Origin: Escherichia virus TH54
Sequence record: MT446420.1
Reading direction: 5' to 3' (one strand)
DNA length: 64,000 bases
In this document: piece by piece, positions 10,436 through 48,571 of the stretch
Layout: each line of letters opens with the position of its first letter
How positions within the stretch are numbered: position 1 is the first letter of the stretch
Notes under the pieces: model-generated
Told to the model about the DNA's origin: nothing
The model's database searches: none
The model's input: the letters and a program-made list of their open reading frames with translations, nothing else
Position numbers and translations under genes: made by a program

Positions 10436-10500
10436 TATTCTCCAGTATTTGGTAACTCAGTATGGGAACATTATACGTCTATCCCCATACTATGTACACA
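10436..10500 (-). promoter_or_regulatory. early promoter/leader cassette (conserved CCATACTGAGTTACCAAATA ... GGAGAATAAAATG)
   Basis: repeated about 50-nt element. Confidence 0.5.
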
Positions 10501-10501
10501 T

Positions 10502-10804
10502 TTAATTAAAAGTTCTTTCAGTATTTTCACCGCTGAACCAGACGCTCTTAACGGCTTGCTGGGCGCGATGGAGCTGCTCTGCCATATAAACACCAAGGGC
10601 CTCAGCTTTACGTGTCCTGTGAGCTTCTGCGGCGACCATTTGCAGCTTATCCATCATGATAAGAGCTTTGCATTTCTCCTTCAGAGCATATCGCTTCTTC
10701 TCTTCTGGAGTTTTGACCATTCCTCTTAACTTGTGCATTTTCAACTTAAAATGGTCAGCAGATTTCAGACATGCATCAATCATGTCAATTTCATACTTTT
10801 TCAT
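10502..10804 (-). CDS. hypothetical protein, 100 aa
   Basis: ORF track. Confidence 0.55.
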   Translation of the reverse strand: MKKYEIDMIDACLKSADHFKLKMHKLRGMVKTPEEKKRYALKEKCKALIMMDKLQMVAAEAHRTRKAEALGVYMAEQLHRAQQAVKSVWFSGENTERTFN

Positions 10805-10810
10805 AATTCC

Positions 10811-11017
10811 TCACTTGCGACGACGTTTTGGTAATGGTTTAGGGAAGAACATTGCTTTACCTGCAGGGGTCAAAGTCACACGTAAAGCATTACCAATACC
10901 AAGGGATGCTTTAACCAGACCTTTGGCTTTTAACTCACCAAATGCTTGACGTTGTTCAGGGTCACGAGTGTTAACCATCAGACCTTTTTCACCAGCAGCT
11001 TTGATTAATTCTAACAT
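10811..11017 (-). CDS. hypothetical basic protein, 68 aa
   Basis: ORF track; conserved leader upstream. Confidence 0.55.
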   Translation of the reverse strand: MLELIKAAGEKGLMVNTRDPEQRQAFGELKAKGLVKASLGIGNALRVTLTPAGKAMFFPKPLPKRRRK

Positions 11018-11019
11018 TT

Positions 11020-11095
11020 TATTCTCCGTTTGTTTATTTGGTAACTCAGTATGGAATCATTATGCATCATGACCATCTGGTTGTACACATATACT
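11020..11095 (-). promoter_or_regulatory. early promoter/leader cassette
   Basis: same conserved element as 10436..10500. Confidence 0.5.
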
Positions 11096-11134
11096 AAATA
11101 AAAATACTTAATAAAACCATAAAGGAGAAAGTTT

Positions 11135-11881
11135 ATGATTTTATCCGGAAGAACTGTTGATGAACTCAATGAAAAAGTCCAGGCTGCCTTGGCTAATAAT
11201 TGGTATTTGTTTGGTTCGACTATGGTGTTGCCGAATACCCCTACGGATAGCAAAGAGCGTTTTTTCCAAACTATGTCCAGCTCGGAAACTCAGATACCGG
11301 GTCCACCTGGTCCCAAAGGAGAACCGGGTGTACCAGGACCAAAAGGAGACCCAGGTGGGGATGGAAAATCTTCTTATCAGATATGGCTTGACTTGGGAAA
11401 TACAGGAACTGTTGATGATTTTTTAACTGATACAGCAGGAAAGAGGGAAAAATCCGAGGTGTTTTGGAGTGGTATAAACGTTCTATTAACCAATGGTGTG
11501 ACTTCAAACATAATTAGTGTTTTAAAGGGGATTCCACCGACTGCAGGGACTCTATCTCCGTTTTTTAGAACCACTGATGATAAGTTGTGGCCATATAACC
11601 AAGACAGAAGCCTAATGTTTAAACTCAACCTTATTGGTAATTTTGCAGGAGCCTCGCAAGCTCGAAGTATAACATTAAATTTCGTTGGAACCAACGGAAA
11701 CACTTATATACAGAATCGTCCGGAAAATGCTACAGATATTTTGTCTTTTACAACGTTCTTTAGCATTGATAAAGATGGGGCAATGGCAACCAATGGTACA
11801 GCTATAACTGTTATGCCAAATGGCGGCAACTTTACAATAACCTCTGCATTGTTAGTAGCCGAACAAACAGTGACTTCATAA
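11135..11881 (+). CDS. collagen-like repeat protein (Gly-X-Y x8) with beta-rich C-terminal domain; opposite strand to flanking genes
   Basis: GPPGPKGEPGVPGPKGDPGGDG repeat; AGGAG RBS; terminator hairpin downstream. Confidence 0.7.
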   Translation: MILSGRTVDELNEKVQAALANNWYLFGSTMVLPNTPTDSKERFFQTMSSSETQIPGPPGPKGEPGVPGPKGDPGGDGKSSYQIWLDLGNTGTVDDFLTDTAGKREKSEVFWSGINVLLTNGVTSNIISVLKGIPPTAGTLSPFFRTTDDKLWPYNQDRSLMFKLNLIGNFAGASQARSITLNFVGTNGNTYIQNRPENATDILSFTTFFSIDKDGAMATNGTAITVMPNGGNFTITSALLVAEQTVTS

Positions 11882-11883
11882 AC

Positions 11884-11905
11884 AAAAAAGGGCCGTATGG
11901 CCCTT
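11884..11905 (-). terminator. bidirectional rho-independent terminator (GGGCC-GTAT-GGCCC flanked by A6/T-run)
   Basis: GC hairpin plus T-run on minus strand. Confidence 0.65.
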
Positions 11906-12146
11906 AGATTGCACTCCAAAAATTATGGAATCTTATAGTATTGATAGCCCAGTTAACAAACCTGCGAGTTTGCTTGGGAGTTGGTTTGCATATGTACTTG
12001 ATATTGACCCGACGACCAGTTTCACGACAGACTGCTTCGAGATACCAGCGGCGACCTTTATGAGGTCTTCCATACGATAAGAAGACCTTGATTTCCTGGT
12101 TATCGATAATAGGAATTGTGGTTGTCAAGATATACCTCCTCAACAA
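11904..12146 (-). CDS. hypothetical basic protein, 80 aa (may be spurious)
   Basis: ORF track. Confidence 0.3.
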   Translation of the reverse strand: MLRRYILTTTIPIIDNQEIKVFLSYGRPHKGRRWYLEAVCRETGRRVNIKYICKPTPKQTRRFVNWAINTIRFHNFWSAI

Positions 12147-13110
12147 ACTTGTCCCAGAACTTCATGTCCACCTTCGCAGGCATACCATTCTTAGCAGCCC
12201 AGATGGCATTAGTTTCGACTTCATCAACGATAGCTTCAAGTTCAGCCTGTACATCTTTAAAAGCATGTAACCCTTGTTTGATTTCAAGGATAAACGGTGC
12301 TGTTCGTAAAGGATATTGAAGGTCACCGGTCATATAAATTTCCTTCAGCTGATATCCAGCTCGATAAGCATGACTCAATGCTTTCCAGTCAATACCTTCA
12401 TTCGCTTCGGCCTTACGAGCACGTTCACCATATTCGGCATCAAGTTTATTCAGAGATTGCTTGAGCTCGATTAAAGACAGAGTAGTTTGGTATTTACGAC
12501 CGAGGACAGTATAGAACGTTTGAGGACCTGTTTTCTCATGGTTATGAAATACCCATTCACAGAACTCGTTTTCAGGGAGCCGGTGCTTAATATCTTCTAC
12601 CTTAGTACGTCGTTGCTTAGTAGAACCATCTTCTTGATAATCGACCCATTGTTCAGGAATCTGGTTAACGATTTCCAATACACCACGCAGTGCAGCCAAT
12701 CGAGAACCTTTAACACCATATTTGGAAGCTTGCTTGCGGACATACCCCAAATAGGCTTTCATGTTGGTTGTATAGAACCGCGAACGGTTATCCTGAATAA
12801 ACTTCCATACATCTGGTAAATCGGATTTGACAACCAGGTCAGCCGGCGTGTGAATCATGTCCAGAGCAACGGTTTCGCCTTCGGCCGCCAGTTTAAAGAA
12901 ATATTTCAGACTATAAAGTTCATGGTCAACATCATCTTTTGTATTTTTGGTAGCCGTGTTATTCGTGTTCAGGTTGGTATGGTTCATCGCCGTCCCAAGT
13001 AGAATATCACGAGGATGTGGAACAAAGATTTCTTTAAAATCGACATCAGATTCTGGGGTACTTGTTCCATAAAGGTGGCTACCGAAGTAGCCTTTCATAA
13101 TAGTTTTCAT
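12100..13110 (-). CDS. Pol-beta superfamily nucleotidyltransferase-like protein, about 336 aa
   Basis: GSHLYGTSTPESDVDF (GS-x10-DxD) motif near N-terminus. Confidence 0.7.
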   Translation of the reverse strand: MKTIMKGYFGSHLYGTSTPESDVDFKEIFVPHPRDILLGTAMNHTNLNTNNTATKNTKDDVDHELYSLKYFFKLAAEGETVALDMIHTPADLVVKSDLPDVWKFIQDNRSRFYTTNMKAYLGYVRKQASKYGVKGSRLAALRGVLEIVNQIPEQWVDYQEDGSTKQRRTKVEDIKHRLPENEFCEWVFHNHEKTGPQTFYTVLGRKYQTTLSLIELKQSLNKLDAEYGERARKAEANEGIDWKALSHAYRAGYQLKEIYMTGDLQYPLRTAPFILEIKQGLHAFKDVQAELEAIVDEVETNAIWAAKNGMPAKVDMKFWDKFVEEVYLDNHNSYYR

Positions 13111-16236: not shown

Positions 16237-16310
16237 AAAGGACTCCTTATTGTTGGTCATGATTACGCTTTGCAGCCTTAACATAGCGGAATACTAGTTA
16301 GTAACTGTAT

Positions 16311-30206: not shown

Positions 30207-30512
30207 TTAGATTTTGTTTTCCTGTACACCATAATAAAGCTCATCAGACACAATATCCAGGATGCGGCGAACATATTCATCATGGTATTGACAGTCAAAA
30301 TCAAATGCAACAGTAGTTTCCGCTTCACGAGTGAATTTAACTTGCACATTCAGGTGATTAACAACGTTAGTTAATTTATCAGTAAAGAACTCTTTTGCTA
30401 CCGCCTGTTGGACTTGCACTTTGAACTTGGTGTTACGAATCATATTTTCAGCAGATGCGAAATTACCAGTTTTATCAAAGTCAACAAGCGCCAGGTTGAT
30501 GATGAATTTCAT
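30207..30512 (-). CDS. hypothetical protein, 101 aa
   Basis: conserved leader upstream. Confidence 0.6.
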   Translation of the reverse strand: MKFIINLALVDFDKTGNFASAENMIRNTKFKVQVQQAVAKEFFTDKLTNVVNHLNVQVKFTREAETTVAFDFDCQYHDEYVRRILDIVSDELYYGVQENKI

Positions 30513-30570
30513 TTTATTCTCCAGTGTTTTATTTGGTAACTCAGTATGGAATCATTATGCCTTAAAGCAG
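30513..30570 (-). promoter_or_regulatory. early promoter/leader cassette
   Basis: conserved element. Confidence 0.5.
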
Positions 30571-31026: not shown

Positions 31027-31099
31027 TTTATTATCCCGTTTGTTTATTTGTTAACTCAGTATGGAATCATTATGTCTTAGTTAAATTCCAAAGTACACA
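31027..31099 (-). promoter_or_regulatory. early promoter/leader cassette
   Basis: conserved element. Confidence 0.5.
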
Positions 31100-31396
31100 T
31101 TAATTTTCAGAAGTTGGGAAATAAACTTCAAAGTCATACATGTTTACTACCGCAGACGCGATTGCCTGGTACTGCATACCTAAGAAAGTTTTCTTATTCT
31201 TGCGCCACAAGTTAACCATTTCTGTTTTGATGCATGCCAGGGAATAGTTGGATGCAGGATACTGTTTGATGATTGCAACAACTTCTTCAGAAGCAGTTTC
31301 ACACAATTCATTCAGTTGAGCTTCAATTTTAGCAGAAATGATTGCTTTGTTTTCTTCTTGAGCTTGGGTAGCGTGCCATGCAGGTGCGTTAAACAT
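31100..31396 (-). CDS. hypothetical protein, 98 aa
   Basis: conserved leader upstream. Confidence 0.6.
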   Translation of the reverse strand: MFNAPAWHATQAQEENKAIISAKIEAQLNELCETASEEVVAIIKQYPASNYSLACIKTEMVNLWRKNKKTFLGMQYQAIASAVVNMYDFEVYFPTSEN

Positions 31397-31478
31397 TTTA
31401 TTCTCCAGTGTTTTATTTGTTAACTCAGTATGGGATAATTATACAATATCCCACCTGGAAGTAAAACACTTTTCTCAA
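31397..31478 (-). promoter_or_regulatory. early promoter/leader cassette (TATAAT in GGGATA/TATCCC palindrome)
   Basis: conserved element. Confidence 0.5.
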
Positions 31479-31904: not shown

Positions 31905-31985
31905 TTTATTTCTCCAAAGTTTTGTTTGATTCAGTGTGTAACTCAGTATGGAATCATTATGCACCCGGTCAATTCGGATGTACAC
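31905..31985 (-). promoter_or_regulatory. early promoter/leader cassette
   Basis: conserved element. Confidence 0.5.
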
Positions 31986-33991: not shown

Positions 33992-34377
33992 TCACATGTT
34001 CCTTCATCAACAATAGTATGTGTATTGGCATTGACAATCTGCCACCAGTCAAAACGGTTGGAACCATAACAAGGTTTATTCTCGTTTTCTTTAATGATAA
34101 CGCGCAGTTCATCTTCAGTCGCAGCCTTTGCGATTAAGTCAGCATAACCGCCACGAGGATAATAGCTATCACCAGCAAAGAGCAAAAAGTTTGTTTTGAT
34201 ATTCTTGAATTCTTCAAGAGTGATAACTGTTCCACCAGGTTGAACAATATCTACATAACTATATCCTAATTTCTGTGCTTCGTTTACCGCTTCAAGCAGG
34301 GTGTCATGTGCCCATCCAATTTGACAATCTGGTTTTTCAGATGGATTTGCCTGATAATCCGCGTACACTTTATACAT
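33988..34377 (-). CDS. hypothetical protein, about 129 aa
   Basis: ORF track, start trimmed. Confidence 0.55.
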   Translation of the reverse strand: MYKVYADYQANPSEKPDCQIGWAHDTLLEAVNEAQKLGYSYVDIVQPGGTVITLEEFKNIKTNFLLFAGDSYYPRGGYADLIAKAATEDELRVIIKENENKPCYGSNRFDWWQIVNANTHTIVDEGTCE

Positions 34378-48563: not shown

Positions 48564-48571
48564 TATAAATA
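48564..48571 (+). promoter_or_regulatory. late promoter TATAAATA for gene 9
   Basis: exact consensus 27 nt upstream of ATG. Confidence 0.65.

Follow-up and report, generated by a model that had tools for sequence, protein, structure and literature searches.

Escherichia virus TH54 (sequence record MT446420.1) is a T4-like coliphage of the genus Gaprivervirus. The 64,000-nucleotide stretch of its genome analysed here (the window, with a GC content of 0.401) carries at 11135–11881, on the + strand, a gene for a 248-residue protein with a short collagen-like stalk, which we refer to as the fibre gene. The two ends of the protein have their closest described relatives in different systems. At the C-terminal end these are the tail-needle knobs of Sf6 gp9 and HS1 (PDB 3RWN and 4K6B), which are trimers with a TNF-like jelly-roll fold. 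In the Sf6 knob, residues E146, K200, S248 and D250 make contacts to three bound L-glutamate molecules, and the same study listed knob homologues from T4-like phages with unknown function (Leavitt et al., PMC3741392). At the N-terminal end, the relative is the DUF1737 domain of the NanS-p esterase gp84 of phage phi24B, which was seen by cryo-electron microscopy (cryo-EM) as a hexamer on the central pore of the hexon and is described by its authors as a 'capsid-binding domain'. Its fold comprises one helix and three antiparallel strands, and the fusions reported with it join DUF1737 to an esterase, a beta-lactamase or an isochorismatase, none of them with a collagen-like region or a knob (bioRxiv 10.64898/2026.04.10.717836).

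Other systems are similar in layout or in proposed role. SPP1 gp12 is also a short collagen-like trimer; it is non-essential and sits on the head at the hexon centres despite a 3-fold/6-fold mismatch (PMC6813328, PMC7602432), a location that for the TH54 protein is a prediction. However, gp12 is a 6.6 kDa protein with neither DUF1737 nor a knob, and no sequence relationship between the two was found. The P5 protein of PRD1 (PDB 1YQ5 and 1YQ8) has a comparable three-part layout: its N-terminal domain anchors it to the capsid, and a collagen-like shaft leads to a TNF-like trimeric knob at the C-terminus. This knob matches the TH54 knob with a Foldseek E-value of 7e-5; in addition, two homologues of the TH54 protein have weak Pfam matches to PRD1_P5_C. 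P5 differs in belonging to the vertex complex of a tectivirus, in its anchor domain, and in sequence (8–9% identity). BclA, ExsFA and the C1q family likewise join a collagen-like region to a C-terminal trimerising domain of the C1q/TNF-like type (E-values of 1e-4 to 1e-3 for C1QL2 and ExsFA), but they are non-phage proteins with other N-terminal targeting, and the likeness is at the level of the fold only (7–14% identity). A preliminary description of the locus had called its layout that of a trimeric fibre of BclA/C1q type, which holds in this restricted sense: the C-terminal domain is a knob of the Sf6 type, with C1q-like proteins and ExsFA among its structural neighbours. Finally, T4 Hoc resembles the protein in its proposed role, being dispensable, located on the outer capsid at the hexon centres, and proposed to act in adhesion (PMC7602432). 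Hoc is, however, a monomer of Ig-like domains, and the close relative vB_EcoM_RZ (RZ) has a Hoc-like gene besides the fibre gene.

The analyses described below assign the protein three modules: an N-terminal domain (residues 1–52), a collagen stalk (56–79) and a knob (99–244). The reading that we favour, with a probability of roughly 0.55, is that it is a non-essential accessory virion protein of a T4-like phage, forming a homotrimeric fibre on the head that serves as an adhesin. The broader claim, that the protein is some form of fibre associated with the virion, is a good deal safer, and we regard it as likely. The modules are individually known and the gene is routinely annotated; it is the combination that is new, and no description of DUF1737 together with collagen and an Sf6 knob was found in the searched literature. 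The same search found no description of the DUF1737 identity of the N-terminus, of the late promoters of the orthologues, or of the exchange of the knob at its boundary, and these points also go beyond the preliminary description.

Modules of the predicted fibre protein

The gene and its modules are as follows:
11122..11127, + strand: Shine–Dalgarno sequence AAGGAG, 7 nucleotides 5′ of the ATG, from the sequence.
11135..11881, + strand: complete coding sequence, with ATG start, 248 residues and TAA stop, from the list of open reading frames (ORFs).
11135..11290, + strand: residues 1–52, divergent DUF1737 domain (PF08410), a putative virion or capsid anchor, from Pfam, hhalign and AlphaFold2.
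11300..11371, + strand: residues 56–79, collagen-like stalk GPPGPKGEPGVPGPKGDPGGDGKS, eight uninterrupted Gly-X-Y triplets, read from the sequence.
11366..11431, + strand: residues 78–99, linker motif KSSYQIWLDLGNTGTVDDFLTD / KSSYQIWLDLGNTGTVDDFL, a fibre module common to phage tail-fibre proteins.
11429..11866, + strand: residues 99–244, Sf6-type tail-needle knob (PF16532), from Pfam, PDB 3RWN and Foldseek.

The frame, the eight triplets and the strong ribosome-binding site (reported as AGGAG) are thus present as previously described. Positions 10800–12200 of the window are 97–99% identical to Escherichia phages TH40, ECML-359, RZ, DK-13 and EAWsc9 and to Yersinia phage P8, and in RZ, P8 and EAWsc9 the gene is annotated as a coding sequence named 'tail needle knob'. 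The ratio of nonsynonymous to synonymous substitution rates (dN/dS) comes to 0.196 in the comparison with RZ and to 0.184 in that with phage C6. Since dN/dS is about 0.2 and homologues occur in at least five genera, the frame is not a chance one; a chance ORF or an artefact was ruled out by the domain matches, the conservation and the dN/dS value together. By these sequence comparisons the fibre ORF is evidently a real gene under purifying selection. It had also been described as the only convincing + strand gene between 1 and 39231. This is borne out by RZ, where it is the sole + strand entry among the 91 coding sequences of the RefSeq annotation in the matching block, and by the ORF map of the window, which before 39280 contains no other + strand ORF of at least 100 residues without a large overlap, except for one of 100 residues at 34341.

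The knob is the most clearly identified part of the protein. It matches PF16532 over residues 99–244 with 112.1 bits (cut-off 27) and an E-value of 2.9e-32, and in phmmer its sequence matches that of the crystallised Sf6 gp9 knob (PDB 3RWN) with an E-value of 1.3e-31. A structure prediction for the C-terminal domain, proposed in the preliminary description as a check, agrees: the AlphaFold2 model, with a predicted local distance difference test (pLDDT) score of about 70–90 in the knob region, superimposes on 3RWN with a template modelling (TM) score of 0.84–0.86 normalised to 3RWN, a root-mean-square deviation of 2.4–2.6 Å and a Foldseek E-value of 7e-16. The predicted fold is a TNF/C1q-like jelly roll. 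As had been described, the C-terminal part is beta-rich and rich in Asn, Gly and Thr: the last 149 residues contain 13% Thr, 9% Asn and 9% Gly and are all-beta in the model. The nearest structural neighbours after the Sf6 and HS1 knobs are the phi812 central-spike knob and then PRD1 P5, C1q-like proteins, TNF-like lectins and ExsFA.

The C-terminal 146 residues are about 38–41% identical to the Sf6 and HS1 knobs. Residues E108, K163, S210 and D212 align with E146, K200, S248 and D250 of Sf6, so that all four L-glutamate contact residues are kept, and glutamate binding is a putative property of this knob also. Among 14 homologues, E108, K163 and S210 are invariant and D212 nearly so. The likeness to Sf6 gp9 and HS1 ends at the knob, however: the fibre protein has neither the tail-plug domain nor the coiled-coil shaft, its knob is carried on collagen and DUF1737, and it belongs to a myovirus with a gp5/PAAR spike.

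The N-terminal domain had been described as helical. This does not agree with AlphaFold2, which predicts an alpha+beta domain of one helix and three strands. With 11 sequences, the pLDDT values for this region were 35–60; modelled by itself from 16 sequences, the domain reached a usable pLDDT of 82.7, with a strand at residues 2–5, a helix at 8–20 and strands at 23–32 and 42–49. The nearest predicted viral structures in BFVD are named DUF1737 proteins, with TM scores of 0.83–0.90. By sequence, 11 of the 14 homologues match DUF1737 (best E-value 6.4e-5), and one of them, P0019, passes the Pfam cut-off with 26.2 bits. A profile built from the N-termini alone and searched against 1.84 billion proteins retrieved five small proteins that pass the DUF1737 cut-off (26–63 bits). 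Comparison by hhalign with phi24B gp84 and DUF1737 proteins gave a probability of 99.0 and an E-value of 3e-18, although most of the comparison set had been selected by the query profile, which makes this result somewhat circular. A sequence-profile search of the PDB with the N-terminal domain returned coiled-coil noise and no solved structure, and a six-frame scan of the window found no second DUF1737-like ORF. Residues 1–52 are thus best described as a divergent DUF1737 domain and a putative capsid anchor.

In phi24B gp84, as here, one helix and three strands make up an N-terminal domain of about 50 residues, which has a GW-x-x-G ... F-x-Q signature and precedes a larger C-terminal module. 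The two domains have a pairwise identity of only about 17%, and the loop of the TH54 domain is longer and does not have the Tyr42 'tooth' position. The cargo also differs, being a putative trimeric collagen-knob fibre as against an esterase, as does the capsid, which is a prolate T4-type head as against a T=9 one. We note that both proteins have a Ser-rich linker immediately after DUF1737 (TMSSSETQIP at residues 46–55 here and VVSEGSISSPE at residues 50–60 in gp84), which in gp84 is a proposed autoproteolytic site (bioRxiv 10.64898/2026.04.10.717836). Proteins with the DUF1737 fold also occur in giant viruses, with BFVD matches in Hyperionvirus, Edafosvirus, Harvfovirus, Terrestrivirus and Yasminevirus. 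In a metagenomic protein of 520 residues (P0020), two DUF1737-like domains stand in tandem, and the place of the knob is taken by another beta-rich module, which is repeated; in this protein, the predicted DUF1737 anchor is combined with distal modules other than the knob.

The stalk has Pro at three X and four Y positions. It scores 17.9 bits against the Pfam Collagen family (PF01391), below the cut-off of 27.2, because the run is short; longer homologues reach an E-value of 2.9e-15. The length of the stalk among homologues ranges from zero (RB43 type) to many more triplets (P0007 and P0008), which by sequence is the behaviour of a spacer. The linker that follows is also found in tandem copies in homologues P0017 and P0019, and PHROG tail-fibre families match residues 53–108 and 68–103. 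As had been described, the collagen codons are rich in GC. The whole gene has a GC content of 0.411, and the rise is limited to the 72-nucleotide collagen segment (0.569), since codons for Gly and Pro require GC. Composition is otherwise ordinary, and a foreign origin based on GC content was ruled out. The moron-like acquisition that had been suggested is therefore not upheld, the gene being close in composition to the window and present in the same region in five genera.

Promoters, distribution and exchange of the knob

The sequences that bear on expression of the gene are listed below, with those upstream of orthologues given for comparison:
11093..11100 and 11099..11106, + strand: ACTAAATA and TAAAAATA, two overlapping degenerate late-promoter-like motifs, 34 and 28 nucleotides before the ATG respectively, at the site where orthologues have TATAAATA.
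Dhakavirus (C6, AnYang): exact TATAAATA, 22 nucleotides before the ATG.
Kanagawavirus (PEi20, KLB31): exact TATAAATA, 25 nucleotides before the ATG.
Tegunavirus (fHe-Yen9-01): exact TATAAATA, 25 nucleotides before the ATG.
Pseudotevenvirus (RB43, EkoM5VN, Margaery): CATAAATA, 22 nucleotides before the ATG.
11014..11090, − strand: repeated early-promoter cassette with sigma-70-like matches on the minus strand, driving the neighbouring gene of 68 residues and bounding the fibre gene.
11888..11905, − strand: GC-rich hairpin directly 3′ of the stop codon, an intrinsic terminator for nrdC.11 transcripts.

In T4-type late genes, the motif TATAAATA lies at about −13 to −6 relative to the transcription start, and transcription depends on gp55, gp33 and gp45. 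Exact copies of it are rare, with 13 in the window over both strands (128 kb) against 5.5 expected. Since it stands at the right distance from the start codon independently in three genera, and since the regions 5′ of the orthologues in these genera are otherwise dissimilar and cannot be aligned, the motif indicates a late gene in the orthologues. Late transcription of the TH54 gene is inferred from them, the candidate late promoter being degenerate in this phage. T4-like phages do not all have the same base at the first position of this motif, Aeh1 using CTAAATA (Nolan et al., PMC1524935), and variants of the motif can for this reason be functional. On the + strand, no sigma-70-like promoter was found 5′ of the fibre gene, and no MotA-box-like sequence was seen there by eye.

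The promoter cassette that was previously reported beside the gene is real and repeated; however, it serves the neighbouring minus-strand gene and not the fibre gene. An element of 26–51 nucleotides at about 11014–11066 recurs with 86–100% identity in five further places (10446–10474, 30510–30560, 31036–31074, 31392–31442 and 31938–31963), and all six copies lie 5′ of minus-strand genes. It resembles the mobile cassettes of early promoter and 5′ untranslated region that are found in the variable regions of T4-type phages. The hairpin behind the gene had been taken for a bidirectional terminator, which is not convincing: it scores as a terminator on the minus strand alone, and on the + strand it is followed by TTAGATT. 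In the orthologues, too, the stop codon is followed at once by a hairpin.

Two further observations concern the late motif itself. The Pseudotevenvirus variant CATAAATA (at about 2470–2480 in RB43, and in the same position in two further records) overlaps the start codon, here read as CAT, of a divergent DNA methyltransferase gene, and this overlap may explain the C at its first position. Within the window, five exact copies of TATAAATA on the minus strand lie inside the 'early' block, at 16308, 32504, 35522, 36813 and 39260. Their position suggests that late promoters also feed some leftward genes, for example that of an internal head protein or the genes on the gene 57/1/3 side.

Of 45 related records, 8 were found to carry the fibre gene in the survey of presence and absence that had been proposed. 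All eight Gaprivervirus copies have an intact frame, with a protein identity of 98.8–99.6%. More widely, tblastn found full-length homologues in 41 phage records, among them Dhakavirus, Kanagawavirus, Tegunavirus, Pseudotevenvirus and Carvajevirus. In TH54 the gene lies between small genes on the nrdC.9 side and nrdC.11, where VR7 has two small minus-strand ORFs instead. In five genera, Dhakavirus, Kanagawavirus, Pseudotevenvirus and Tegunavirus among them, it lies on the late strand within the nrdC–tk variable region, and it therefore looks like an old resident of this region that has been repeatedly lost or exchanged. A role in the head, or a late structural one, is also suggested by the gene's surroundings in two other phages. 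Aeromonas phage 44RR2.8t has a knob protein whose N-terminus is different and made of fibre repeats, and its gene stands between those for the major capsid protein and the vertex protein. In the Klebsiella siphophage Carvaje, the large terminase gene ends where the gene for a full-length homologue starts, at the terminase stop codon.

Comparison with Dhakavirus indicates how the gene has changed. Against phage C6, the knob and its 3′ flank (11436–11971) are 90–100% identical, with 90–98% for the knob in the sliding comparison. Identity is only 35–68% upstream of the gene and over its 5′ part, with about 65% in the N-terminal part. The break in this mosaic, at about 11435, falls on the boundary between linker and knob. 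C6 and AnYang in turn have an identical N-terminal domain, stalk and linker, while in a sliding comparison their knobs are 57–70% identical. The knob module has thus evidently been exchanged with Dhakavirus exactly at the domain boundary, and the position of the break implies that the anchor stays with the phage lineage while the knob is exchanged. A fixed anchor with an exchanged knob is the pattern expected for a virion-bound adhesin. Further downstream, between the fibre gene and nrdC.11, an ATG-initiated ORF of 46 residues (11933–12073, − strand) corresponds to the annotated ORF97 of C6 and is unannotated in RZ. AnYang does not have this stretch, whereas the C6 sequence matches it with 100% identity.

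Proposed location and role of the fibre

On the favoured reading, a gp55-type promoter shortly 5′ of the gene, such as the orthologues have, would drive its late transcription, which would run the same way as that of the late genes, and the gene product would be translated from the strong Shine–Dalgarno sequence that is present in the DNA. The knob would fold as a TNF/C1q-like trimer with three L-glutamate molecules at the subunit interfaces, as the Sf6 and HS1 structures and the conserved contacts suggest. As is generally the case for collagen-like proteins, this trimer would bring the eight Gly-X-Y triplets into register in a short triple helix. By the precedent of phi24B gp84, the DUF1737 domain would dock the fibre on the outside of the capsid, at the central pore of the hexon, displaying the knob some nanometres above the head. 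There it may act as an exchangeable adhesin or lectin-like module that binds weakly and reversibly to ligands on the host surface or in the environment, as has been proposed for Hoc, SPP1 gp12 and the phi29 head fibres, rather than as a cell-puncturing needle.

Evidence from virions comes from related proteins. Sixteen spectra of the knob protein were reported from CsCl-purified virions of Sajous1, and knob-only proteins of Vi01-like phages are present in purified virions (PMC10892097); the homologue of Dickeya phage XF4 is annotated as 'unknown structural protein'. The accessory status of the fibre follows from its presence in only 8 of the 45 related records.

Several points weigh against a fibre on the head. 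The N-terminal domain itself scores 13.8 bits against DUF1737 (E-value 0.054) and so falls short of the cut-off, which is 24. Capsid binding by DUF1737 comes from one preprint on an unrelated podophage with a T=9 capsid, and would have to carry over; moreover, the bound domain is hexameric in phi24B, but trimers would be required for a collagen stalk and a knob. The Hoc-like protein that RZ encodes might compete with the fibre for the site at the hexon centre. Virion proteomics or cryo-EM studies placing a protein of DUF1737 and knob in a T4-like virion were not found in the searched literature, which covered fHe-Yen9-01, GuL6, Carvaje and P8. The Sf6-type knob was not a determinant of host species specificity for P22 hybrids (Leavitt et al. 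2013, PMC3741392). As regards expression, we confirmed the earlier report that no exact TATAAATA precedes the gene in the window, the nearest + strand copy being at 48564, and the hairpin would be at best a weak terminator on the + strand. Motifs with one mismatch occur in the window at chance level (124 found against 125 expected); they were ruled out as promoter evidence, being statistically empty.

The degenerate motifs are also what would suggest a decaying remnant, in which an intact frame remains unexpressed in TH54 because its late promoter has mutated to TAAAAATA and ACTAAATA, where orthologues have TATAAATA. We consider this very improbable, given that the frame is kept in every Gaprivervirus copy at high protein identity and with a dN/dS of 0.196 against RZ, that the Shine–Dalgarno sequence is retained, and that the late motif is known to differ at its first position in T4-like phages such as Aeh1 (PMC1524935), so that variants can be functional. 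The gene might alternatively be non-structural, moron-like cargo: a recent arrival, expressed independently of the virion and acting in or on the infected cell, for instance through a change to the cell surface, the exclusion of other phages or release at lysis. Such an origin would suit its reversed orientation within the early block, its own Shine–Dalgarno sequence, the cassette and hairpin that flank it, its sporadic distribution, and the lack of a canonical late promoter in the source phage. The flanking elements, however, belong to minus-strand transcription, the cassette driving the neighbouring gene and the terminator scoring on the minus strand only, and no + strand sigma-70-like promoter was found upstream. 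Only the Gly and Pro codons depart from an ordinary GC content, five genera have the gene in the same region and on the same strand, with canonical late promoters in orthologues, neither a signal peptide nor a hydrophobic segment was seen in the protein sequence, and all three modules are typical of virion fibres or decoration proteins. Cargo of this kind is accordingly rather improbable.

The alternative closest to the annotation is the one implied by the PHROG and RefSeq name 'tail needle knob', namely a component of the tail or baseplate; the protein would then sit at the tail tip or the baseplate periphery and contact the outer membrane or assist DNA delivery in the manner of Sf6 gp9. The homology of the C-terminal domain to the Sf6 and HS1 needle knobs is clear, yet similarity to Sf6 gp9 is limited to residues 99–244, both in tblastn and in phmmer against 3RWN, and where a needle of the P22/Sf6 type would have a gp10-binding N-terminal domain and a coiled-coil shaft the protein has DUF1737 and collagen. 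The phi812 central-spike knob is the next structural neighbour after Sf6 and HS1, but RZ already has a full central spike made of gp5 and a PAAR protein. A tail location is also consistent with the linker and collagen repeats, which are common to tail-fibre PHROGs, and with the knob-only proteins in Vi01-like virions. Against this, none of the tail and baseplate clusters contains the gene, which is found in the nrdC–tk early region of a T4-like myovirus, whereas the needle of P22/Sf6 type is encoded within the tail gene cluster of a P22-like podovirus. It is also absent from most close relatives, which are viable phages. We therefore regard a tail component as unlikely, and the pipeline label 'tail needle knob' probably misplaces these proteins on the virion.

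Implications for T4-like phages

A head fibre remains the reading that we prefer, and if it is right it extends the finding of a DUF1737 capsid anchor to large lytic myoviruses. It would also mean that T4-type heads have a second display site that is independent of Hoc, which would be of use for phage display and for work on the adherence of phages to mucus, and it would provide a natural case of an adhesin module swapped between phage genera at a domain boundary.

More tentatively, these proteins may represent a class of head fibre that has so far gone unrecognised, carried by T4-like phages and by one genus of siphophages or more, and consisting of a DUF1737 plug in the hexon, a stalk of variable length and a knob that holds L-glutamate and is traded between genera; we consider this possible, though open to doubt. 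If true, such phages would carry on their capsids a swappable, lectin-like adhesin alongside Hoc, and the label 'tail needle knob' would be wrong for the whole group. Should DUF1737 be hexameric here as it is in phi24B, each hexon would hold two trimeric fibres, which would be a new answer to the mismatch between 6-fold and 3-fold symmetry. In addition, the fibre gene offers a practical way to approach what the glutamate-binding Sf6 knob does.

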